32,000 nucleotides of DNA from Candidatus Methylomirabilis oxygeniifera (GCA_000091165.1 FP565575.1:2370001-2402000); one strand, 5' to 3'; positions 10,129 through 28,762 are shown, counted from the stretch's first letter. Program-made: numbers and translations. Notes: generated by a model from the letters alone, not told the origin.

Positions 10129-12132
10129 ATGGACCCTCGATTCTCCCGAAGACTCCTAGGGGTAGCGGTCGCCATTTCGTTGAGCGTCTCGCCCTTCGCC
10201 TCCATTTCAGCCTTCTCTGCGGAGTACCAGGCTCGCAGTAATAGTCTCACCGAGATCCCACAGCGACACAGCCTCTCCGATAATCAGCTTACAGCCGCCG
10301 TGGTATTGCCTCCCCATGGGGTGAGTATCCAACCCCAGAGTCACGTCCTCGACGGAACGCTTCGAACGCCAGGCGACAACGAAAGAACCCTTCGGAATGG
10401 GTTAGTGCATTCTTCTAAGGGAATGCAGGCATTGGCGGCGGGAGATCGAGTCGGGGCTCAGAAAGAGCTGGAGACCGCAAGGAGCATCCTGTCACAGCTT
10501 CCTAAGGCGGCGACTTCGGATGAACTGCGGCTCAGACTTATCGAAGAAACGGCGCTCCTCCATGCGGCGCTTTCCGGCGCCCTTTCAGGTCAAGAAGCAG
10601 ATAGTCCGACAGACGAGCGAGAGGAAGAGGAGAACGAAGCCGATACCGAGGCGGCCCCCGACCTCGTTGTTTCCGAAGAGGAGCCGGTCCTGGCGTCTCC
10701 GGGCAGCGAGATCCTGTCGATCCCTGCACTGGATCCGAGCGACTTTGATGTGCCGATCGAACTGAATGAACAGGTGAAGGCGTATATCCTCTACTATCAA
10801 ACTCGAAAATCGGGAGTGATGAGCCGGGCCTTTGAGCGATCAGGTCGCTTTCTGCCGATGATGCGCCGGATCTTTCGAGATCACGGCATCCCACAGGACC
10901 TCGTCAACCTGGCGTACGTCGAAAGTGGTTTCAACTACCGCGCTTATTCCAAGGCAAAAGCATCCGGGATCTGGCAGTTCATCAAACCGACCGGGAATCG
11001 GTATGGGATGAGGGTCAACTACTGGCTTGATGAGCGGCGGGATCCGGAAAAGGCGACCCACGCGGCAGCCGCCTACCTGAAAGACCTGTATGAGATGTTT
11101 CAATCCTGGCCGCTGGCTCTGGCCGCATACAACGCAGGGGAGTATCGGATTCAGCGGGCCATCGAACAGCAGGGAACCACCGATTTCTGGTCGTTAAGGC
11201 TTCCGAAGGAAACTGAGCTCTTTGTTCCCGCCTTCATGGCGGTCACCATCATTGCCCAAGACCCCGATCGGTACGGCTTTGCCGCACCGGTTGAGGAGCC
11301 ATGGAATGTGGAGCGGGTGACAGTGCCAGGGGCCATTGAGCTACGTTCTGTGGCTCGGACGGTAGGCGTGTCGTCAGACCTGATCCGGGATTTGAATCCG
11401 GCCCTGATGCGCGGGGTGACTCCCATACACGCTTCCGAATACGAGATTCTGCTCCCGCCTGGCGCCAAGGAGATCCTCTTGGCTAACCTCGATCAGCTCC
11501 CACGGTACTCGTACCGTGAGCCGGTCAGGACAGCAGTAAAATGGCATCGGGTCAGAAAAGGGGAGACGTTGGAATTAATCGCCTCGCGGCACCGGACTGT
11601 CCCTGCCGAGCTGGCCGGCTTCAACGGCCTGAAGGTTGGCGACAGGTTGAAGGTGGGGGCGCTGCTTCGATTGTCGCCGGCTGCACCGGCGAGCAAGGGG
11701 GCCGTGGTCTCTGTGCGAGGCGCCGGCTCCAGGGGTCGTCCGATGGCAGCGAAGAAGGCTGTATCCTCGGCCCGTTCCGCCGCCTATATCGTCAAGCGCG
11801 GCGATACGCTCTCGAAGGTCGCCAGAATTTACGGCGTGACGCCTGACAATCTGCGACAGTGGAATGGCCTGAAACGCCAGGCGAAGCTTCAACCGGGACA
11901 AACATTGCAGGTAGTCGCTCAGACCGCAAAAAGCAATCGTGACACCGGACGCGGGGATGTTCCAGCCTCTATAACTCCCGTTCGGTACAGGGTGAGAAGA
12001 GGCGATACCCTATGGGAAATCGCCAGGGTCCACGATGTTACCCCGGACGAACTCCGCCGATGGAACGACCTGGGGCACAAGACTCCGCTTTTGGTGGGTC
12101 AGGAGTTAAGGATCCGCGTCAGCGAGAGCTGA
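10129..12132 (+). CDS. mltD: Membrane-bound lytic murein transglycosylase D-like protein (SLT domain plus three LysM repeats)
   Basis: Signal peptide, an acidic low-complexity linker, the SLT catalytic region YVESGFNYRAYSKAKASGIWQF...AAYNAGEYRI, and three LysM repeats (HRVRKGETLELIA..., YIVKRGDTLSKVA..., YRVRRGDTLWEIA...). Confidence 0.88.
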   Translation: MDPRFSRRLLGVAVAISLSVSPFASISAFSAEYQARSNSLTEIPQRHSLSDNQLTAAVVLPPHGVSIQPQSHVLDGTLRTPGDNERTLRNGLVHSSKGMQALAAGDRVGAQKELETARSILSQLPKAATSDELRLRLIEETALLHAALSGALSGQEADSPTDEREEEENEADTEAAPDLVVSEEEPVLASPGSEILSIPALDPSDFDVPIELNEQVKAYILYYQTRKSGVMSRAFERSGRFLPMMRRIFRDHGIPQDLVNLAYVESGFNYRAYSKAKASGIWQFIKPTGNRYGMRVNYWLDERRDPEKATHAAAAYLKDLYEMFQSWPLALAAYNAGEYRIQRAIEQQGTTDFWSLRLPKETELFVPAFMAVTIIAQDPDRYGFAAPVEEPWNVERVTVPGAIELRSVARTVGVSSDLIRDLNPALMRGVTPIHASEYEILLPPGAKEILLANLDQLPRYSYREPVRTAVKWHRVRKGETLELIASRHRTVPAELAGFNGLKVGDRLKVGALLRLSPAAPASKGAVVSVRGAGSRGRPMAAKKAVSSARSAAYIVKRGDTLSKVARIYGVTPDNLRQWNGLKRQAKLQPGQTLQVVAQTAKSNRDTGRGDVPASITPVRYRVRRGDTLWEIARVHDVTPDELRRWNDLGHKTPLLVGQELRIRVSES

Positions 12133-12156: not shown

Positions 12157-12462
12157 TTGAATTCGGGTCGTTGGATGTCATCACATGGGGCACACAGGTC
12201 TTCTCACGTCATTCAGAGCTCACTCGTGCCACCAGGCGGAGCTAACCGGCGTATTCGGTTCATCGCAGGCGTTGCCTTCATTGCCGTAAGCTTTCTGGTC
12301 TACCCATCCTATCTTGTGATTCCACTCCTTCCACTTTCCGGTACGATGAAACTGGGCATCACTCTCCTCGCTTCGCTTCTGAGCTGGGGGATGTTCGGCG
12401 TCGGCTTCTATCTGAGTGGGCGAGAAGGGTATGACTGGCTCAAGCGACGCCTTCGTCGCTGA
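12157..12462 (+). CDS. Small two-TM membrane protein (transporter-suffix-like); start codon uncertain
   Basis: The C-terminal ~75 aa are hydrophobic (FIAGVAFIAVSFLVYPSYLVIPLLPL...LGITLLASLLSWGMFGVGFYL) and end in a basic tail. An in-frame GTG at 12226 is an alternative start. Confidence 0.5.
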   Translation: MNSGRWMSSHGAHRSSHVIQSSLVPPGGANRRIRFIAGVAFIAVSFLVYPSYLVIPLLPLSGTMKLGITLLASLLSWGMFGVGFYLSGREGYDWLKRRLRR

Positions 12463-13126
12463 TCCGCGTCAAGTCGATTGATCGTCCGTTACCCGGCAAG
12501 TGTAGTCCGTCCCATGCTTCCTCCTATCTCTATATTCGCCTGCAGCCAGCCGAGTGGTCATTTACTCAATACGTCTTATCCTTGGAGGCCTGCCGTTCTC
12601 TCCGCACCGCTTTCATTAGAATCGCGTGAGATTGTATACGCCAAAATGCGTATTGACTGATGTGGCCATTTGTTGGATAGTGCACGATTGTGTGCCTACA
12701 CCTATGTGCGATCTCACAGTAAAGTAGGATAGTATGCGGCGAGATACATCTCATGTCGCATTCAGTTCTTGGTAGTCGTTATGGCATGCGTGTAAGTAGA
12801 GGTAGATAATAAAAACGACTCACTTATTGATGACATGACAATAGCGTGTGTTTTTCAGACAACGCCAAGTGCCGATTTCCTGAACTGAAAAGGAGGTGAT
12901 TCTTACAGACTCATGAAGTATCAGGCCGCGGCTTCTTTGGATCACTCTTAGTTATGTGCCGTGAAGTCGTAGGGCCAGCGCAGCCCGGTCGGCTGACTGA
13001 CGTTGCTGTGCCGGGTGTATACGACAGGTGACCCGATTCTTTACTTATCCTGGTGGTCGTGGTGTTCCGCGTGGCGGAGCTCCCGTCGATCCCTGGTACG
13101 TCTAGTAAATGTGGAGGCAAATACGG

Positions 13127-15511
13127 ATGAATGAGATGAGCGTCACAGGCAACTTGCTGGTACGAGGCAAGAGTAATAAGAGGAGAAGTAAGAGTAAAGG
13201 TTTCGCGCTGATCGGCGCATTGTTGGGAACGCTTGCGGCCGTTTCCCCGGGTTCAGCGGCCCAGAGCCCGCAAGTTCGATTGGATCCCGACAGCATCCCA
13301 CAGTTCGCGCAGCCGCTGCCGGGACTCGATCTCGGGGCAGTTGTCAGTAGCGGACCTACCGGTGTAGGTCTCAAGGTGTATGTCGGCGCCGATGCCATCG
13401 TCGGGTCGACCGAGATCCACATCTGCGAATTCGACGCGAGCGTGTTGCCGTCGGGTACACCGGGCGTGACGGCGAAGACGCGCTCATGGGGATATATCGT
13501 AGGTCCATCATGTCCGGCCCCAGGCACGCCGGAATATACACAGGACAGTTATATCGGCCCGGTACTCGTGGCCGTCCGCAACTTACCCTCTACCCTGAAG
13601 TTCGTCAATGACCTCGGGAATGCCGACTCGACTGGAGTGCTGGCGTACAAGTATTCTGTTGACCAGACGATTCACTGGGCCGATCCGCTCGACCTTCATG
13701 CCACGGCCCACTGCTATCACCTGGCCGAGGACGGACACATTCCGGACCCCGGTTCGGAGTGCGCCCAGAACTACGCCGGCCCCATCCCGGCGGCAGTGCA
13801 CCTGCATGGAGGCATCATTCCACCGGAACTGGACGGCGGTCCGGATGCCTGGGTCGCGAGCGACGGTCGCAAGGGTCATGGCTACTATACCTCCGCCCCG
13901 GCCCCGCCCAACGGTTTTACCTACAAGTATCCTAACGCCCAGGAAACTGCCCCACTTATTTTCCACGATCACGTCCTGGGTAACTTGCGTCTGAACCTCT
14001 ACGCGGGGATCGCCGCCGGTTACATCATTGAGGACAATACCCTCATCCCGACAGATGCCACTGGGGTTTGGGGGAGCACCGTTCTCGGTGTTGCCGCTTG
14101 CGACCCGGCTTCCAATAAATGCCTCCCTTCGAATCTGCCAGGCACCGCCGAGATCGTCCCGGTCATTATCCAGGACCGCATATTCGACACCAACGGACAG
14201 CTTTTCTGGCCGGCCGACGATGCGGGCGGTATCCTGTCAAGCCCGAACCCTGAGCACCCTTACTGGGCCCCCGATTTCTTTGGCGATGTCAATGTGGTGA
14301 ACGGCAAGGCGTGGCCGTACCTCGAGGTCCAGCCGAAGCGATACCGCTTCCTCTTCATTAACGCGTCTCACTCGCGCATCTACAACCTGAACCTGGGTGT
14401 ACCGATGTGGGTGATCGGCACGGATGGCGGATACGTAGACACGCCGATTCGGGTCGATAATCTCCTGATCACTTCCGGCGAGCGATACGAAGTCATTATT
14501 GATTTTAAAGGTCTGAATGAGCAAAATCTGATCCTCCGTAATACGGCCGAAGCACCGTACCCGAACGGCACGGCGCCGAAACCAACGACCCTTGGGCACG
14601 TGATGCAGTTCCGCGTTGCGGCTGCGGACGCAGCGGATACCAGCTTCGATCCGGCTTCCGGCAATCGGATACGGGGCAAAGAGGCGCAGATCGTACGTCT
14701 CGTGAAACCGACCAAGGGGAAGTTGGCCGTAAAGAAGAAGAACGTGGCTGTAACTCGCCAGCTCGTCTTTAACGACGTGGACGGCGCGAGCAAGACCGTG
14801 ACCAACCCGGTCACCGGCGAGCCCGGAACTACCTACCTGGGCGGGCGGCTGGAAATCCTGATGAACAATACCAAGTGGTCAGGCGAATCGGATAGGACGT
14901 ATGGCGACTTCACGCCGATTACGCTCAACGGTGTTACGAATAACTACTCTGAGATTGTTCAAGAGGGCAACATCGAAGTGTGGGAGTTTGTCAACCTGAC
15001 CCAGGTGTCTCACGCGCAACACCTGCATGGAGTCGCGTTTCAGGTGCTCAATCGCCAGGACTTCAATAAGGGCGCCTACATGGCGGCCTATGCGACGGCG
15101 TTTCCTGGCGGCGCATTTATTCCAGGCTTCGGCCCACCGTTAGACTATAGGCCGTCATCCGCTTCCGGTAAGAAGTACGGCGGTAACCCCGACATCAAAC
15201 CGTACCTGCAAGGGAAAGTCATACCGCCTCGACCTGAAGAGTCCGCCTGGAAGGACACCGTGATCACCCTTCCCGGTCAGGTGACCAGGGTTGCCGTACG
15301 GTATACGCCTTCCGATCTGCCGATCAGCGCGAAGGCTCAGGATCGGTACTTCCCATTCGATTCGAGCGGTGGCAATCAGAACGGCTTTGTCCACCACTGT
15401 CACATGACCGAACATGAAGACAACGAGATGATGCGAATCAGCCTGGTCACGTTGAACCCCGACGCGCCGGCACCTGCAAGCAGGCTGCTCAAGAAAGGTA
15501 TAGACTACTGA
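13127..15511 (+). CDS. Secreted multicopper oxidase (CotA / bilirubin-oxidase-like, oversized, ~794 aa)
   Basis: All four MCO copper motifs are present: HLHGG (13799-), FHDH (13964-), HAQHLHG (15011-) and HHCHMTEHEDNEMM (15395-15430; C-x4-H-x4-M type-1 site). Start set to the ATG at 13127, 9 nt after GGAGG. The N-region is KRRSKSKGFALIGALLGTLAAVSPGSAAQ, a signal peptide that is possibly Tat-like. Confidence 0.9.
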   Translation: MNEMSVTGNLLVRGKSNKRRSKSKGFALIGALLGTLAAVSPGSAAQSPQVRLDPDSIPQFAQPLPGLDLGAVVSSGPTGVGLKVYVGADAIVGSTEIHICEFDASVLPSGTPGVTAKTRSWGYIVGPSCPAPGTPEYTQDSYIGPVLVAVRNLPSTLKFVNDLGNADSTGVLAYKYSVDQTIHWADPLDLHATAHCYHLAEDGHIPDPGSECAQNYAGPIPAAVHLHGGIIPPELDGGPDAWVASDGRKGHGYYTSAPAPPNGFTYKYPNAQETAPLIFHDHVLGNLRLNLYAGIAAGYIIEDNTLIPTDATGVWGSTVLGVAACDPASNKCLPSNLPGTAEIVPVIIQDRIFDTNGQLFWPADDAGGILSSPNPEHPYWAPDFFGDVNVVNGKAWPYLEVQPKRYRFLFINASHSRIYNLNLGVPMWVIGTDGGYVDTPIRVDNLLITSGERYEVIIDFKGLNEQNLILRNTAEAPYPNGTAPKPTTLGHVMQFRVAAADAADTSFDPASGNRIRGKEAQIVRLVKPTKGKLAVKKKNVAVTRQLVFNDVDGASKTVTNPVTGEPGTTYLGGRLEILMNNTKWSGESDRTYGDFTPITLNGVTNNYSEIVQEGNIEVWEFVNLTQVSHAQHLHGVAFQVLNRQDFNKGAYMAAYATAFPGGAFIPGFGPPLDYRPSSASGKKYGGNPDIKPYLQGKVIPPRPEESAWKDTVITLPGQVTRVAVRYTPSDLPISAKAQDRYFPFDSSGGNQNGFVHHCHMTEHEDNEMMRISLVTLNPDAPAPASRLLKKGIDY

Positions 15512-15578
15512 TGCCATATTCAACTGCATTCGCATATCGCATCATTATCAGGACTGCCGAGAGAAGGAGCGCTAGATA

Positions 15579-18095
15579 ATGAAGAGCATACAGAGGTTGT
15601 CAATCTATCTCATCATGGCGATAGGGATGTGGATCGGTACGGATGCCGACGCCAGTTCCGTGCAATCGCAAGACCCGGCCGCGATCTTTGCGCGAGCCTG
15701 CGCGACCTGTCATGGCGCAAAGGGTCTCGGAGGTGTCTCGTGGGTCAAGAATAATTCGCGGGATCAGCGAACGGCTCCCCAAATTGCGGGCCACCCTGCA
15801 GACAGCATCAAAGCGATGGTCAGAAGAGGGTCGGAGAATGCCGCAATGCCCGGATTTGGGGTACAGGAGATTACGGATGCCGAGCTGGACGCCTTGGCAA
15901 CCTTTATTCAGGATAACTCGAGCAGCATACCGACACCGGTGAAACCCAGCGGAAAACAGGTGGCCCTGTATGTGCTGGATGCCGATCCATGGTTTACGGA
16001 TCGTGGCGCCGACAATGATGCGGATCCGTTTAATGACGTGAGAAGAGTCGTGCTGGAGCCAGGCCAATACCTGAAGGTTATCAATACCGGTCGCACCTGG
16101 CACAGTTTCACCAGTCTTGAGTCCGGCAAAGACTCCGGATTTATCGGTTACGCCGGGAACTACAAGAATAAGACCAAGGATCTGAATCAGAACCGAAAGG
16201 CAGGTATGGGTTTCTACTACGCCGACCAGACGGCCGGCCTCGCATCGGGCTGCAATAAGTACATTTGTAAGATCCACCCGTACATGACGGTTGAAGTCTG
16301 CACCGCCGGTAGCACCCCGAAAGGGCCGAACGATGTGCTCGGCTTAACGCGGGCGCACAAGCAGCCCCTTGGGCTTCCATCAGTCCCAGGAATCGGCGAT
16401 GAGATATGGGTCAGTGCCCAAAGTCAGGAGGAAGTGGGCGAAAAGACGACGAAAATCAAAAAGAAATCAGTCCGCGACTTTGATGGCGCTTACCAGGTCA
16501 TCAATACCGCTACCTGGAATGTCACCCGCGTCCCCAATGTCGGCAATAACCCACACAATTCCTGGCCGGGTCATACCGCGACGCGGGACGTGGTCGTCTC
16601 AACCAACTGGCATGACAACAGACTGACGTTGATGGATGCCACAACCAAGACCGTTGTCAGGGAATTCCGGTCTGGCGCCACCAACGCGCACGTGATGGCG
16701 GTGCCAGGCGTCGCAAATCGGGATACCTGGTTTGTGAGCCATATGGGCGGTAAGGCGATGGCCGAAATCAGTGTGGACCTGCTTGAACTGGGGACCGACC
16801 CGAATGTCGGCCTCTTGCGTGGCGCGCCAGGGCCTCACGGTCTGTGGATGTGCGACGATACGTATCACTTTATCGTTGCCGACACCTTCAATAACTCGGC
16901 ATCCATGTATGATATCGATTTCGGAAACGTTGCCACCACCGCTACCGGTGGAACGATCCCCCTGGCGACGGGCATCAAGAACGGTTTCGGGCCTGGAGGG
17001 TGCACAAAGGGCTTTGCGGCGAATGCCGGGACCGCCGATCTTGCGGTCTACAATATCACCCCCACCTTGGGCGCCGAGGAGCTTGACCGCGATACGACTT
17101 GGTCTGCCGAACACGCAAATGGCGTCCATAAGAACGTCGCCGGAAACATTGCGCTCAGAGCGACAGACCCCGGAACGGATGTGGCGTCACCCCATGCGCT
17201 TCTGCCGGCAGAAACCATCGAGCAGAAACGGTGGTCCCATCTGCCGATTCAGAGCCCGGTCAGCCCCGTCGACGCCACGACCCACGGGCGTTTCATGGTG
17301 ACGGCCAACAAGGCCAGCTTTAATGTTGTGATTACCGGCCTGGATCCCAGCGGTCGTCCGTGGGGTGTCTTCACCGCACCGGCCGGTCTTGGCGCCCACG
17401 GTGTCAGCTTCGGTAAAAAGAATCGGTGTGACACCAATAACGATGGCGTGGAGGATACGGATGCCTCTGCAGCCGTGATCTGCTATTACGCGTTTGTTAC
17501 CAACACCTTCGAGGATTATGTTAGTGTCTACGATCTGGAGAAGGTCGATGTGAATGACGACAGGGTCATCAACAATCCTGCTGGGTTGGGTATGCAGGGA
17601 CCAGGTTCGGCGCTCTTGACCGAGAACGTCTATCTCGAAGGTGGGGCGGTCGCTGCGGTCGTTGCTCTCGATCCTGGCGTTGCAGGGCTCTGCGGGTCCG
17701 TTCTGAAGTGCGGTACTGGGCCAACCGGTGGAACGTATATCTCGAATCTCCCCATTGGAATCCTTTGTCCGGATTGCCGCAGCGGGGTACACGTTGGCGA
17801 TATTCCGCTCACGCTGACCACCGGCGCGCCGCTGGCCGGTCCTGCAGATACCGTTGCCAACAGCGGTGCCAATGCGAAGTATGTTTATCTGAAGGAGCCC
17901 GTATGGGTAGATACGATGACCGTGGGATGCGCCTTGTCGGCAAACGACTGCGACAATACTGCAGGCGAACCGTTCGGAGCGGGCACAGAAGTAGGAAACC
18001 TGAACACACAAGTGACACTTGACTTGGAGCTTGGAACGAATACGGGCGCTCAGGGTATTGTGGTACGACCGGCTTCAGCGCCGTGGACGCCGTAG
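15579..18095 (+). CDS. Secreted fusion protein: class I cytochrome c + amicyanin-like type-1 Cu cupredoxin + YVTN-like beta-propeller + Cys-paired C-terminal domain
   Basis: GAAGGAG SD 9 nt upstream. Sec signal peptide ending ...TDADA. Heme motif CATCH (15699-15713) with downstream AAMPGF. Type-1 Cu ligands H175 (TWHSF, 16101) and C230-K-I-H233-P-Y-M236 (16266-16286). Recurrent propeller-blade motifs are NPHNSW...VVVSTNWHDNRLTLMD, GPHGLWM...HFIVADTFNNSASMYD and GAHGVSF...YAFVTNTFEDYVSVYD. The C-terminal ~140 aa carry three closely spaced Cys pairs. Confidence 0.8.
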   Translation: MKSIQRLSIYLIMAIGMWIGTDADASSVQSQDPAAIFARACATCHGAKGLGGVSWVKNNSRDQRTAPQIAGHPADSIKAMVRRGSENAAMPGFGVQEITDAELDALATFIQDNSSSIPTPVKPSGKQVALYVLDADPWFTDRGADNDADPFNDVRRVVLEPGQYLKVINTGRTWHSFTSLESGKDSGFIGYAGNYKNKTKDLNQNRKAGMGFYYADQTAGLASGCNKYICKIHPYMTVEVCTAGSTPKGPNDVLGLTRAHKQPLGLPSVPGIGDEIWVSAQSQEEVGEKTTKIKKKSVRDFDGAYQVINTATWNVTRVPNVGNNPHNSWPGHTATRDVVVSTNWHDNRLTLMDATTKTVVREFRSGATNAHVMAVPGVANRDTWFVSHMGGKAMAEISVDLLELGTDPNVGLLRGAPGPHGLWMCDDTYHFIVADTFNNSASMYDIDFGNVATTATGGTIPLATGIKNGFGPGGCTKGFAANAGTADLAVYNITPTLGAEELDRDTTWSAEHANGVHKNVAGNIALRATDPGTDVASPHALLPAETIEQKRWSHLPIQSPVSPVDATTHGRFMVTANKASFNVVITGLDPSGRPWGVFTAPAGLGAHGVSFGKKNRCDTNNDGVEDTDASAAVICYYAFVTNTFEDYVSVYDLEKVDVNDDRVINNPAGLGMQGPGSALLTENVYLEGGAVAAVVALDPGVAGLCGSVLKCGTGPTGGTYISNLPIGILCPDCRSGVHVGDIPLTLTTGAPLAGPADTVANSGANAKYVYLKEPVWVDTMTVGCALSANDCDNTAGEPFGAGTEVGNLNTQVTLDLELGTNTGAQGIVVRPASAPWTP

Positions 18096-18122: not shown

Positions 18123-18155
18123 ATGAGGAGGGGATGCCAAACATCCCCTCCTCAT
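18123..18155 (+). terminator. Rho-independent terminator of the MCO operon
   Basis: Perfect 14-bp stem ATGAGGAGGGGATG / CATCCCCTCCTCAT with loop CCAAA, followed by TCTATTTC, 28 nt after the stop codon. Confidence 0.75.
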
Positions 18156-18167
18156 TCTATTTCAGAT

Positions 18168-18196
18168 TTGACAACCTGAGGTCCCTTCCGTACAAT
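18168..18196 (+). promoter_or_regulatory. Candidate sigma70 promoter for the nucleotide-sugar cluster
   Basis: TTGACA-N17-TACAAT, a near-consensus match, about 115 nt upstream of the rmlA GTG. Confidence 0.6.
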
Positions 18197-24763: not shown

Positions 24764-25153
24764 ATGGTGAGAAGAGCGACGGTGCACGTGATGGTGCTGA
24801 CAGCTATGGTCGTCAGCTCGACAGGGGCTTGGGCGGCCGGGGCAGCCAATACCGAACCCAAGCCCCCGGAAAAGTTTGGGACCTTCTGTGGTCCGTGTCA
24901 CGGTTCTGCCGGTAAGGGGGACGGGCCGGCAGCGGCGTCTTTGAATCCCAAGCCGCGGAACTTTGCTGACGGCAAGTATATGAATACCAGAACCGACGCG
25001 CAACTGATCAATGTCATCAAGAACGGCAGCGCAGCCGAGAAGTTGAGCCCGCTGATGGTCGGCTACGGTAGCATGGTAAACGACAAGGAGATTCAAGACA
25101 TCGTGGGCTATATCCGTTCAATCGCTGTCCCGAAGTACCAGCCGAAGAAGTAG
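24764..25153 (+). CDS. Periplasmic class I c-type cytochrome (monoheme)
   Basis: Signal peptide, a CGPCHG heme-binding motif, and a downstream SPLMVGYG candidate Met ligand. GGGAGG SD 5 nt upstream. Confidence 0.85.
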   Translation: MVRRATVHVMVLTAMVVSSTGAWAAGAANTEPKPPEKFGTFCGPCHGSAGKGDGPAAASLNPKPRNFADGKYMNTRTDAQLINVIKNGSAAEKLSPLMVGYGSMVNDKEIQDIVGYIRSIAVPKYQPKK

Positions 25154-26511: not shown

Positions 26512-27189
26512 ATAGCGCGGATTGCTCGAATCGTTGCAACGGGCCACCCTTATCATGTTACGCAAAGGGGGAATTATCGCCAAGCGGTCTTTCGAAACGA
26601 CGAAGATCGTTCTCGATATTTATCCTGGGTTAATGAATACAGCCGCAAATTTCACCTATCGGTATGGGCCTATTGCTTAATGGACAACCATGTTCATTTC
26701 ATTGTCCAACCGTTGAAAGAGACATCGTTGGCTAAAGTGTTCAGCGTGACCCATATGCGGTATGCTCAATATTTCAATAAAGAGAGGAAGGTGTCCGGAC
26801 ACTTGTGGCAGGGACGCTTTTATTCCTGCCTACTTGATGAGCCTTATCTTATGGCGGCAATACGGTACGTTGAGAGGAATCCGGTACGGACCAAGATGGT
26901 CAACAGGCCCTGGCAATGGAAACGGTCCAGTGCAGCCGCTCACATCGGTGGAACAGATGAGATAGTCGATGTCATCGAGATAAAGGAATCGGTAGGCGTT
27001 TCCAAGGAGTCATGGAGAGAGCACATCGAATCGGATGATAATGCCCCAGATGTGGAAGTCCTTCGAAAGCACACGATGACAGGACGACCATTGGGAGGGG
27101 ATGGGTTCATCGGGGAATTGAATAGACAACTGGGACAAGTAGTAAGCGTTTTGCAGAGAGGAAGGCCAAGAAAGGATCTCAAGAAATAG
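26512..27189 (+). CDS. REP-associated tyrosine transposase (RAYT) / IS200-like HUH Y1 transposase homolog; no canonical start codon for the conserved N-terminus
   Basis: The track ORF starts at the ATG at 26680 (MDNHVHFIV), but the same frame is open from 26506. That stretch encodes IARIARIVATGHPYHVTQRGNYRQAVFRNDEDRSRYLSWVNEYSRKFHLSVWAYCL, the conserved family N-terminus. HUH motif HVH at 26689-26697. GHLWQGRFYS and RYVERNPVR motifs are also present. Confidence 0.75.
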   Translation: MARIARIVATGHPYHVTQRGNYRQAVFRNDEDRSRYLSWVNEYSRKFHLSVWAYCLMDNHVHFIVQPLKETSLAKVFSVTHMRYAQYFNKERKVSGHLWQGRFYSCLLDEPYLMAAIRYVERNPVRTKMVNRPWQWKRSSAAAHIGGTDEIVDVIEIKESVGVSKESWREHIESDDNAPDVEVLRKHTMTGRPLGGDGFIGELNRQLGQVVSVLQRGRPRKDLKK

Positions 27190-27241
27190 TGTCTGTCCCC
27201 ATTAAGCCCTCGCGTGGTTGTGCAACCGGTCTCGTGGCAGC

Positions 27242-28762
27242 ATGAAGAAATCCTCATCCTCATTAATCGCAATCGGTGGTGAAGGTGTGCGAGCGGCTCG
27301 TCGATGCGCCATCTCTCCTCCTTCCCCTTCCGTCGAACAGCGCTCAACGCTCCCCCTGATCATTCAAGGCGGTATGGGTGCCGCTGTCTCCAACTGGCGG
27401 CTAGCCAACGCCGTGGCACGAACGGGCCAGTTGGGGGTCGTCTCCGGCACCGGTCTCGATACGGTGTTCGTACGTCGCCTGCAGGATGGCGATTGTGGCG
27501 GTCACATGCGGCGCGGGATGGAACAGTTTCCGATCCGTCGCGCTGCAGACGAGGCCATGCGCCGCTACTATCGGCCCGAGGGCCGGGCGCCGGGTGAGCC
27601 GTACACGATGCTTCCCCTGTACCGCCAGGTGGTGGCTCCCGCTCGGCACGAGCTCACCATGCTGGCCGCATTCGTCGAAGTGTTCCTTGCCAGAGAGGGA
27701 CACGATGCGCCGGTCGGTATCAATCTGCTCACCAAAATTCAGCTACTCACGCTGCCGACGCTCTACGGCGCGATGCTCGCCGGGGTCGGCTACGTCCTGA
27801 TGGGCGCCGGCATCCCGCGAGAGATTGCAGGAGCGCTCGACCTGCTTGCCGGGCACCACACGGCCAGGCTCCGATTCGACGTGGAGGGACTCCCCTCCGA
27901 CGCCGTCGAATACCTCGAGTTTGACCCCAGCGCTCATTGGGAGACGTCGCCGCCGCCACTCGTGCGGCCGAAGTTCTTCCCGATCGTCGCAAGTAACTCC
28001 CTGGCGACGATGCTTGCCCGCAAGGCGATCGGCCAGGTGGACGGATTCGTGATCGAAGGCCCCACCGCCGGTGGCCACAACGCCCCACCTCGCGGGGAGC
28101 CATGGTTTAACGAGCGCGGTGAGCCGATCTACAGCAAACGCGACGAGGTAGACCTCGAGAAGATCAGGGAGCTGGGACTGCCTTTCTGGGTGGCGGGCGG
28201 GACCGGACACCCCGAGTGCCTGGTTGCGGCACGCAAGGCGGGAGCCGCTGGAATTCAGGTCGGGACACTCTTCGCCTTCTGCGACGAATCAGGGATCGCC
28301 GAGCCGATCAAGCGCTCGGTACTCGCCCATGCGGCCCGTGGCGAGGTAGACGTTCGCACGGAGCCCCGCGCATCGCCCACCGGCTTTCCAATCAAGGTTG
28401 TGGAATGGGCCGAGAATCCCGCCATGGGCATATCGCGCGAGCGGGTCTGCGATCTGGGGTACCTGCGTGTCGCCTTCATGACGGCGGATGGGAAAATAGA
28501 CTACCGGTGCCCCAGTGAGCCGGAGGCCGCCTACGTGAAAAAGGGCGGCAGGATGGAGGATACGATCGGCCGTCAGTGCCTGTGCAACGCGCTGCTCTCC
28601 GTCATCGGTCACCCGCAGATCAGTGCCGACGGGACCGTGGAGCCGCCGATCGTGACCAGCGGCGATGATCTTGCGACCATCGGTGACTTCCTGGGCGACC
28701 GGACGAGCTACACTGCCGCAGACGTCGTCGCCTATCTGTTGTCAGATCGTGGTGCGGCCTAG
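27242..28762 (+). CDS. Nitronate monooxygenase / 2-nitropropane dioxygenase-like FMN oxidoreductase (long form)
   Basis: LPLIIQGGMGAAVSNWRLANAVARTGQLGVVSG and ...DGFVIEGPTAGGH... are NMO/FabK-like TIM-barrel motifs. The start (TTG at 27218, ATG at 27242 or GTG at 27287) is uncertain. Confidence 0.7.
   Translation: MKKSSSSLIAIGGEGVRAARRCAISPPSPSVEQRSTLPLIIQGGMGAAVSNWRLANAVARTGQLGVVSGTGLDTVFVRRLQDGDCGGHMRRGMEQFPIRRAADEAMRRYYRPEGRAPGEPYTMLPLYRQVVAPARHELTMLAAFVEVFLAREGHDAPVGINLLTKIQLLTLPTLYGAMLAGVGYVLMGAGIPREIAGALDLLAGHHTARLRFDVEGLPSDAVEYLEFDPSAHWETSPPPLVRPKFFPIVASNSLATMLARKAIGQVDGFVIEGPTAGGHNAPPRGEPWFNERGEPIYSKRDEVDLEKIRELGLPFWVAGGTGHPECLVAARKAGAAGIQVGTLFAFCDESGIAEPIKRSVLAHAARGEVDVRTEPRASPTGFPIKVVEWAENPAMGISRERVCDLGYLRVAFMTADGKIDYRCPSEPEAAYVKKGGRMEDTIGRQCLCNALLSVIGHPQISADGTVEPPIVTSGDDLATIGDFLGDRTSYTAADVVAYLLSDRGAA

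Follow-up and report, generated by a model that had tools for sequence, protein, structure and literature searches.

An exported cytochrome c, type-1 copper and propeller fusion encoded beside a multicopper oxidase in Candidatus Methylomirabilis oxyfera, and its homology to copper proteins of ammonia oxidisers

Gene A and gene B are two neighbouring genes on the plus strand of a 32,000-nt stretch of DNA from Candidatus Methylomirabilis oxyfera, an NC10 bacterium that oxidises methane with nitrite; this stretch in its full length is called the window, and all positions without a locus name refer to it. The deduced products are 100% identical to CBE69848.1 (gene A) and CBE69849.1 (gene B). An earlier note on this DNA had described a complete four-motif multicopper oxidase (MCO) followed, 67 nt further on, by an exported protein of 838 aa that joins a class I cytochrome c, an amicyanin-like cupredoxin and a YVTN-like propeller, and had proposed that the two proteins work together in passing electrons from a substrate to O2. 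Our analysis confirms the observation, including the placement of both open reading frames (ORFs), and partly supports the interpretation; the family behind gene B is a more interesting result than the gene pair itself. The two genes and the residues on which the argument turns are the following:

13127..15511, plus strand: gene A, exported three-domain MCO of the CotA type, 794 aa (the deposited form, P0055, starts at 13127)
13799-13807, 13964-13972, 15011-15028 and 15395-15430, plus strand: copper motifs of gene A, in this order HLH, HDH, HAQHLH and HCHMTEHEDNEM
15579..18095, plus strand: gene B, exported fusion of cytochrome c, cupredoxin and seven-bladed propeller, 838 aa
15579..15653, plus strand: signal peptide of gene B, residues 1-25, cleavage after A-D-A, as read from the sequence
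15669..15914, plus strand: class I cytochrome c domain of gene B, residues 31-112 (Pfam, alignment and profile)
15699-15713 and 15846-15848, plus strand: heme motif C41-A-T-C44-H45 and axial M90 of gene B
15948..16301, plus strand: type-1 copper cupredoxin domain of gene B, residues about 124-241 (ligands and profile matches)
16101-16103 and 16266-16286, plus strand: cupredoxin ligand H175 and ligand loop C230-K-I-H233-P-Y-M236 of gene B
16386..18095, plus strand: seven-bladed YVTN-type propeller of gene B with C-terminal elaborations, residues about 270-838 and the stop codon
16554-16556, 16689-16691, 16836-16838, 17250-17252 and 17397-17399, plus strand: hub residues H326, H371, H420, Q558 and H607 of gene B
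17790-17792, plus strand: H738 of gene B, conserved in the cytochrome c-type subfamily only

Gene B was aligned with 24 relatives (35-79% identity), and a joint alignment of 18 sequences was made to span the cytochrome c-type subfamily and a second subfamily that is fused to a two-domain laccase. The signal peptides of both gene A and gene B look Sec-type; in the relatives of gene B an equivalent A-Y-A or A-x-A cleavage site is found, and the AF2 model assigns to residues 1-26 a predicted local distance difference test score (pLDDT) below 50. The N-terminal domain scores well above the Pfam cut-offs (PF13442: 48.2 bits, cut-off 27; PF00034: 33.4 bits, cut-off 21.3) and, with C41-x2-C44-H45 and M90 invariant among the 24 relatives, is a class I cytochrome c. 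The second domain is missed by Pfam in gene B itself, PF00127 matching 4 of the 24 relatives, including the most distant ones. The family profile, compared with solved structures, identified the pendant cupredoxin of 9CCK (E 1.3e-6) and amicyanin (E 0.005), the β-strands of the domain are predicted with pLDDT above 85, and H175, C230, H233 and M236 are invariant in the relatives as well as in the joint alignment, with the amicyanin-type spacing C-x2-H-x2-M; the domain is a type-1 cupredoxin. A binuclear CuA site was considered on account of the motif C-x4-C-x2-H-x2-M and rejected: the site is taken to be of type 1 because Cys225 is not conserved, being replaced by A, V, K, L or M. The propeller was recognised by the match of the family profile to the YVTN S-layer propeller 1L0Q (E 1e-23 to 6e-25) and by the superposition of the model (AF2: pLDDT 84, predicted TM-score 0.89) on the same structure (Foldseek: E 7e-11, root-mean-square deviation (rmsd) 4.0 Å), which place it among the YVTN propellers; the Pfam family YNCE reaches no better than E 0.009 for gene B, yet it matches 10 of the 24 relatives. 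With the whole chain as the query, Foldseek lists cd1 nitrite reductase first, followed by YVTN and lactonase propellers and the β subunit of hydrazine synthase. Inside gene B there are long antisense ORFs of 225, 176 and 274 aa (15600-18011, minus strand), and homologous loci have them as well; being mirror images of the reading frame in a gene rich in G+C, they are no evidence of genes.

A conserved feature of the propeller is a set of residues that we call the hub, made of the four histidines H326 (in NNPHN), H371 (in NAHV), H420 (in GPHG) and H607 (in GAHG) and of Q558, all five of which are invariant in the 18 sequences of both subfamilies, while H738 (in VHVGD) is nearly invariant within the cytochrome c-type subfamily. 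The joint alignment exhibits several other invariant positions (N323, P325, W329, G421, W423, P461, P563 and D652) and an invariant C-terminal motif G-x-x-G...W. In the register of the repeats, the four hub histidines and H738 occupy the position x of the YVTN 'P-x-G' motif in blades 1, 2, 3, 6 and 7; H326, H371 and H420 precede the YVTN-like strand of their blade by 10-14 residues, and H607 by 32, with an insertion. The family profile aligns the GAHG and GPHG motifs of gene B with IHG and NPHG of the N2O reductase 2IWF, whose histidines we take to be ligands of the CuZ centre. The hub of four invariant histidines and one glutamine most probably binds one or more copper ions, and as a ligand set it is unlike any known copper centre.

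A profile search of 1.84 billion representative proteins returned about 10 full-length clusters and many proteins that match in the cupredoxin and the propeller only, several of which carry N-terminal Cu-oxidase_3 and Cu-oxidase_2 domains. About 200 of the retrieved proteins, a sample biased by the way of its collection, show the pattern H-H-H-x-Q-H in the propeller, and 191 of 204 also carry the copper loop C-x2-H-P-[YF]-M. The module attached to this core is a two-domain laccase in 116 cases, a cytochrome with one heme c in 46, with three hemes in 5 and with eight hemes in 1, or there is none. Since the partner varies and the core stays fixed, the cupredoxin and the propeller are expected to form the catalytic unit, and the third module would be the electron outlet. 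The laccase fusions are represented by P0219, which is 27% identical to gene B over 414 residues (E 5e-20) and exhibits all four MCO motifs, the loop F-T-C-K-V-H-P-Y-M and the propeller; its N-terminus is a two-domain laccase of the SLAC type (E 1e-33). P0219 has 608 homologues; 13 of the best 120 bear an organism name, every one of them that of an ammonia oxidiser (Nitrosopumilus, Nitrosocosmicus, Nitrososphaeraceae, Nitrosomonas and Nitrosospira). The fusions of ammonia oxidisers (P0219, P0345 from Nitrosopumilus adriaticus, P0436 from Nitrosomonas and P0395 from Nitrosospira) have a core homologous to that of gene B, with which they share the type-1 ligands, H326, H371, H420, H607, Q558 and the C-terminal G-x-x-G...P-x-W motif; they differ in that the SLAC-type laccase replaces the cytochrome c, there is no heme, and H738 is absent. 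The conserved blue-copper and four-histidine propeller core is common to NC10 bacteria, denitrifying sulfur oxidisers and ammonia oxidisers, archaeal as well as bacterial. The partner varies further in P0033-P0037 (about 1200 aa) and P0052 (1414 aa), which are related to gene B but longer; one group has C-terminal TIG domains and a dicytochrome of the SoxA/TsdA type, and the other eight CxxCH motifs. No characterised family was found to match gene B, and the literature yielded neither a paper that describes its family nor matches to the accessions, in keeping with the earlier note, to whose author no system of this composition was known; the composition is apparently undescribed; the Methylomirabilis literature on MCOs, propellers or cupredoxins contained nothing on gene A or gene B, and the archaeal MCO papers that were found do not mention a propeller.

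Gene A matches Cu-oxidase and Cu-oxidase_2 of Pfam above the cut-offs; an alternative ATG at 13109 would extend the ORF to 13109..15511 (plus strand, 800 aa). The copper motifs H225-L-H227, H280-D-H282 and H629..H632-L-H634, and likewise the fourth, H757-C-H759...H763...M768, are invariant in 25 aligned homologues and correspond to the complete signature of the four-motif MCOs (HxH, HxH, HxxHxH, HCHxxxHxxxxM). The nearest solved relatives are the CotA laccases and bilirubin oxidases, with CotA found at E 1.7e-54 by phmmer; the structural model, of moderate confidence (pLDDT 69), identified CotA as well (Foldseek: E 5e-41, TM-score 0.76-0.79 normalised to CotA). We predict an oxidase function for gene A, as for a three-domain MCO of the CotA and bilirubin oxidase branch. 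None of the NCBIfam equivalogs reaches its cut-off, the best being PhsA with 143 bits against 950. The large size of the protein had been regarded as a special feature, which does not hold: the roughly 280 extra residues stem from insertions into loops of domains 1 and 3 in an ordinary CotA fold, and the length is a family trait, because among more than 2000 homologues the best 120 (from Acidobacteriota, Planctomycetota, Actinomycetota and others) are mostly 720-800 aa long, at about 50% identity. Export by the Tat pathway was rejected, as the RR of the M. oxyfera signal peptide is not kept in close relatives.

Gene A and gene B are adjacent also in a second Methylomirabilis species (L022-L024), with 70% and 74% identity, respectively, and six further pairs of homologues, matched by equal lengths of the longest contig, suggest the same arrangement through the genus. 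A comparable order is found in ammonia-oxidising bacteria, where a gene for an MCO-like protein of 334-338 aa lies directly 5' of the fusion gene, separated from it by 36 nt in Nitrosomonas and overlapping it by 14 nt in Nitrosospira, with a GerE response regulator ahead of both cassettes:

L028 6948-10751: cassette of MCO-like gene and fusion gene, Nitrosomonas
L036 7010-10934: cassette of MCO-like gene and fusion gene, Nitrosospira

Of the four MCO motifs, the small protein has just 1 and 2, and the fusion just 3 and 4. The trinuclear cluster of two-domain laccases is formed between subunits. Since the motifs are complementary and the cluster forms in this way, the small protein and the fusion probably must assemble, and the pair, which looks like a 'split' two-domain laccase, could form a trinuclear cluster only as a hetero-oligomer. 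The sequence of an MCO gene followed by a propeller gene makes these cassettes a parallel to the M. oxyfera pair. The link of the core with an MCO arises three times independently, by adjacency, by fusion and by an upstream MCO-like gene; the support that the fusions and the upstream genes lend to a partnership of gene B with an MCO, which the earlier note had proposed, is real, though indirect.

The reading that we favour, with a probability of roughly 0.45, is that of an exported redox pair in which gene B is the enzyme that acts on the substrate and gene A is the O2-reducing sink. A small substrate would react at the propeller hub, at a centre formed by four histidines, one each on blades 1, 2, 3 and 6, and by the glutamine on blade 5; electrons would pass from there to the neighbouring type-1 copper of the cupredoxin and on to the N-terminal heme c. 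The most likely sink would be gene A, which would accept them at its type-1 copper and reduce O2 to water at the trinuclear cluster. Both the direction of the electron flow and the transfer from the heme to the MCO are inferred.

Several points weigh against this reading. The family of gene A is huge and its members mostly occur by themselves, and one homologue with 53% identity has neither a cytochrome nor a propeller as a neighbour. The adjacency in the second Methylomirabilis species is weak evidence, because the whole neighbourhood, from the transglycosylase to the sugar genes, is collinear there, and the gap between the two genes is 222 nt. Outside the genus the flanks of gene B homologues with 27-55% identity were searched at 15 loci (Sulfuricaulis, other contigs of gammaproteobacterial type, Fimbriimonadia, Planctomycetota, Methylococcales and a 50%-identity clade) with tblastn, with a hidden Markov model of the gene A family and with Pfam, and an MCO was found in the sequenced flanks of none of them; as a two-gene unit the pair is therefore specific to Methylomirabilis. 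The MCO of the fusions is a two-domain laccase, whereas gene A, with three domains, belongs to a different class. That the histidines cluster in a hub rests on the register of the repeats and on the alignment with 2IWF, which is non-significant (E 0.1). M. oxyfera lives anaerobically, so that an O2-dependent sink needs internally made or trace O2. Finally, our search of the literature found no expression or biochemical data on gene A or gene B.

The surroundings of the pair contain the following candidate control elements:

12463..13126, plus strand: non-coding leader, 664 nt
12636..12653, plus strand: candidate operator, perfect palindrome ATACGC-N6-GCGTAT (ATACGCCAAAATGCGTAT) that abuts a -35-like hexamer
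12653..12681, plus strand: sigma-70-like promoter candidate TTGACT-17-GATAGT, matching the consensus
15512..15578, plus strand: intergenic spacer, 67 nt; AAGGAG (15564-15569) serves as ribosome-binding site, 9 nt ahead of the gene B ATG
18123..18155, plus strand: intrinsic terminator with a 14-bp stem, 8 G-C pairs and a T-rich tail
18168-18196, plus strand: strong promoter-like site for the next gene, with the same site in L022

The earlier note had pictured the pair as framed by a non-coding leader and a strong terminator, and this picture is borne out by the leader, by a promoter-like site that is conserved (in L022 the equivalent is TTGACA-17-TATGCT, 2790-2818) and by the terminator stem. 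The predicted promoter would give a 5' untranslated region of about 440 nt. Conservation of the leader is poor, and in the sister species it is about 300 nt shorter; its sole well-conserved island is the palindrome, which occurs once in the window, against 0.07 occurrences expected, is found at the equivalent place 5' of the MCO gene in L022-L024, and is present in 0 of 32 other loci. The leader contains no ORF longer than 69 aa and no convincing small ORF, and a riboswitch or another known RNA in it was rejected, as Rfam gave no match at the gathering score or at E≤1. Neither the window nor L022 contains a terminator-like site on the plus strand between the two genes, which together with the 67-nt gap and the ribosome-binding site makes co-transcription of gene A and gene B plausible.

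The comparison of gene B with known enzymes bears both on the chemistry at the hub and on the direction of the electrons. N2O reductase (NosZ) is likewise periplasmic, with a cupredoxin that feeds a copper centre whose histidine ligands come from the inner strands of a seven-bladed propeller; its clade II forms carry a fused cytochrome c, and the profile puts two of the invariant histidines of gene B on positions of CuZ ligands. However, in gene B the order of the domains is reversed (cytochrome c, cupredoxin, propeller), the cupredoxin exhibits the type-1 motif C-x2-H-x2-M instead of the binuclear CuA site, the seven CuZ histidines are set against four invariant ones, with a fifth in one subfamily, and nos accessory genes are lacking in the vicinity. 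With four histidines, no C-terminal CuA motif C-x3-C-x3-H-x2-M and E 0.1 to 2IWF, gene B is not a member of the NosZ family. The cd1 nitrite reductase NirS, which is used or encoded both by M. oxyfera and at the Sulfuricaulis locus, likewise starts with a class I cytochrome c and continues with a propeller, and it is the best whole-chain match in Foldseek (E 4e-11), but its propeller is eight-bladed and holds heme d1, there is no cupredoxin, and the rmsd over the whole chain is about 16 Å. Nor is gene B a NirS by its profile: PF02239 does not match it at E≤1 and matches 1 of the 24 relatives at E 0.009; the genuine NirS in L021 is found at E 1.8e-92.

Or could gene A and gene B be independent neighbours, with gene A an unrelated laccase-type MCO and gene B a reductase, in which electrons run from the cytochrome c pool through the heme c and the blue copper to the hub and there reduce a nitrogen oxide or another oxidant, as in N2O reductase and cd1 nitrite reductase? 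The architecture mirrors both NosZ (a cupredoxin that feeds a histidine-ligated hub) and NirS (an N-terminal cytochrome c and a propeller), the latter being the top structural match; M. oxyfera respires nitrite, homologues of gene B reside in nar and nirS neighbourhoods, and the missing MCO at the 15 loci outside Methylomirabilis and the 222-nt spacer of the sister species point the same way. Against it, the fusion of the core to an O2-reducing two-domain laccase fits an oxidase and not a reductase, ammonia-oxidising bacteria of two genera have an MCO-like gene ahead of the core, and accessory genes of the nos type are absent near all homologues examined. We consider the two genes unlikely to be mere neighbours of this kind.

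The exported redox pair has partial counterparts among other systems. In that of methylamine dehydrogenase, amicyanin and cytochrome c551i the order of the partners is the same (propeller enzyme, type-1 cupredoxin, c-type cytochrome); there, however, they are three or four separate proteins, and the tryptophan tryptophylquinone cofactor resides on the small subunit. Gene B shows no match to the heavy chain in Pfam or the PDB, mau-type genes are absent among the annotated ORFs of the window, and methylamine dehydrogenase was set aside; the same was done for thiocyanate dehydrogenase, on the basis of the sequence relation to its solved chains. Nmar_1354 (archaeal MCO4, 9CCK) is an MCO with a pendant type-1 cupredoxin, which is the closest solved relative of the cupredoxin of gene B; it differs in having no propeller and no heme, and its two-domain MCO and cupredoxin form one chain. 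It oxidises hydroxylamine (NH2OH) to nitroxyl (HNO) and shows that an MCO with an extra blue copper can act on an intermediate of nitrification (PMC11761707). The curA operon of Myxococcus xanthus and the ncgABC-nirK cluster of Nitrosomonas also combine an MCO with c-type cytochromes, and curA in addition a cupredoxin, a propeller lipoprotein and a DUF305 protein (PMC3707914); these are separate genes of other families, and in the window there is no copper ATPase, copper-sensing regulator or nirK.

The resemblance to curA is one argument for a serious rival, which the earlier note did not list and which weakens our reading although we still think it doubtful: a role in copper homeostasis, in which the hub would bind copper as a substrate or cargo and the blue copper and heme c would change its redox state. 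Cu(I) could be oxidised with a cytochrome c acceptor when O2 is scarce, or Cu(II) could be reduced for uptake; gene A would then be a cuprous oxidase like CueO, and organisms that use copper monooxygenases would depend on a system of this kind. The copper-induced curA operon contains the same parts as separate genes, namely a cupredoxin, the MCO CuoA, a propeller lipoprotein, a DUF305 protein, CopA and a PF13442 cytochrome c (PMC3707914). In a distant Paracoccus relative (L016 8966-11043; L011) a YVTN propeller with the same PHN / AHV / PHG / PIQ / AHG pattern is fused to a DUF305 domain of the type of CopM, a copper-binding DUF305 protein (PMC4335983), and the gene adjoins a heavy-metal P-type ATPase and an HMA protein, with a class I cytochrome c gene 6 nt 3'. 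The archaeal MCO4 genes are the most strongly induced ones under copper limitation (PMC7785015), and membrane proteins of the NapH/CcoG polyferredoxin type adjoin gene B homologues in L002 and L003. Neither the ORFs of the window nor those of L022-L024 near the pair include a copper ATPase, CopC/D, Cus or a copper-responsive regulator, so that gene linkage as in copper resistance clusters of the cop, cue or curA type is seen only for the Paracoccus relative, and the contexts of the Sulfuricaulis type contain denitrification genes and not those of metal resistance. The ring of histidines, invariant over archaea and bacteria, is more like the site of a catalytic cofactor than one for Cu(I) as a substrate. 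Cu(I) sites usually use Met or Cys.

The neighbouring genes in the window are a lytic transglycosylase/LysM gene (10129-12132) and a small membrane-protein ORF (12157-12462) upstream, both on the plus strand, genes for dTDP-rhamnose (rml) and GDP-mannose downstream, and dnaK-dnaJ-hsp20 farther upstream on the opposite strand. The position of gene B between a transglycosylase and sugar-nucleotide genes would suit a propeller that is not catalytic at all but a binding or cell-surface scaffold, with the heme c and the blue copper as a tethered electron shuttle of the envelope; the best sequence match of the propeller is the S-layer domain 1L0Q, and surface-type proteins (Lcl_C / Big_2) adjoin the 50%-identity homologues. 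Such a role is, in our view, very improbable: 1L0Q is aligned with Met, Gln, Leu and Lys at the positions of the four histidines that are invariant here across two domains of life, and the dedicated type-1 copper domain that accompanies 191 of the 204 propellers argues for redox chemistry at the propeller.

All-against-all clustering did not reveal a partner gene conserved across all loci of gene B homologues. A gene for a SurA_N chaperone (187-228 aa) lies directly 3' of the homologue in every locus of gammaproteobacterial type (L001, L021, L026 and L027) and is absent from the window, and a PAS/GerE regulator is found 5' only in loci of this type; in Sulfuricaulis (L021) two paralogous PAS/GerE regulators flank the homologue and its SurA_N gene. 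The polyferredoxin (Fer4_5) genes in L002 (8-1444) and L003 (7788-9785), from Planctomycetaceae and Fimbriimonadia genomes, encode fusions to tetratricopeptide repeats. In the window, a class I cytochrome c gene of 129 aa (24764-25153, plus strand) lies 6.7 kb 3' of gene B and is conserved in the corresponding position of the sister species (L022 14878-15267). Farther on are a fragment of an IS200-type Y1 transposase (26680-27189, plus strand), of which only the C-terminal part of the domain matches, and a 514-aa protein of the nitronate monooxygenase (NMO) family (27218-28762, plus strand), 53% identical to a 513-aa NMO in L026, which is located 1.1 kb from a gene B homologue; a shorter NMO adjoins the Sulfuricaulis homologue. 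A link of the window NMO gene to gene B was set aside, as its neighbours in the window are unrelated.

As for the substrate of gene B, a nitrogen intermediate at the level of hydroxylamine, NO or HNO is a tentative first choice and Cu(I) a possible but doubtful second, the former being ranked slightly ahead because the universally invariant all-histidine ring resembles a cofactor site; Mn(II), Fe(II) and sulfur compounds are examples of the candidates that share the remainder of the probability. The Sulfuricaulis homologue is placed between a nar-like cluster (Fer4_11, EB_dh, NarJ, MoaA), a CRP/FNR regulator and a genuine nirS, whose product (L021 14058-16214, 2 kb 3' of the homologue) has 718 aa with three N-terminal cytochrome c stretches; the homologue in L026 is near NarG, a NarX/L-like pair and a hemerythrin/DUF2249 protein, and that in L004 near an EB_dh-dicytochrome c protein and MoaA. 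For the most part, the organisms that bear the core produce hydroxylamine by means of copper monooxygenases. Perhaps, then, the core could be a new class of copper enzyme for an intermediate at the hydroxylamine, NO or HNO level, wired to O2 via an MCO or to the cytochrome c pool and common to ammonia-oxidising archaea and bacteria, gammaproteobacterial methanotrophs and NC10 bacteria, a generalisation that we put forward as speculative and rather improbable. If it is true, it would make the archaeal core a candidate for the copper-based enzyme, long sought, that acts after ammonia monooxygenase, and gene B of M. oxyfera would dispose of periplasmic hydroxylamine or NO.

Gene B defines a family for which no characterised member was found, even though its parts, a heme c, a blue copper and a propeller, are familiar ones. 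The fusion of its core with a laccase bears on the enzymology of ammonia oxidisers downstream of hydroxylamine and on their unexplained extra copper proteins. If the family serves in copper handling instead, it would add a new component to the copper homeostasis of organisms relying on copper monooxygenases. M. oxyfera provides a heme-tagged, single-chain form of the core, and the archaeal and bacterial fusions its putative O2-coupled versions, so that together they make the chemistry directly testable.

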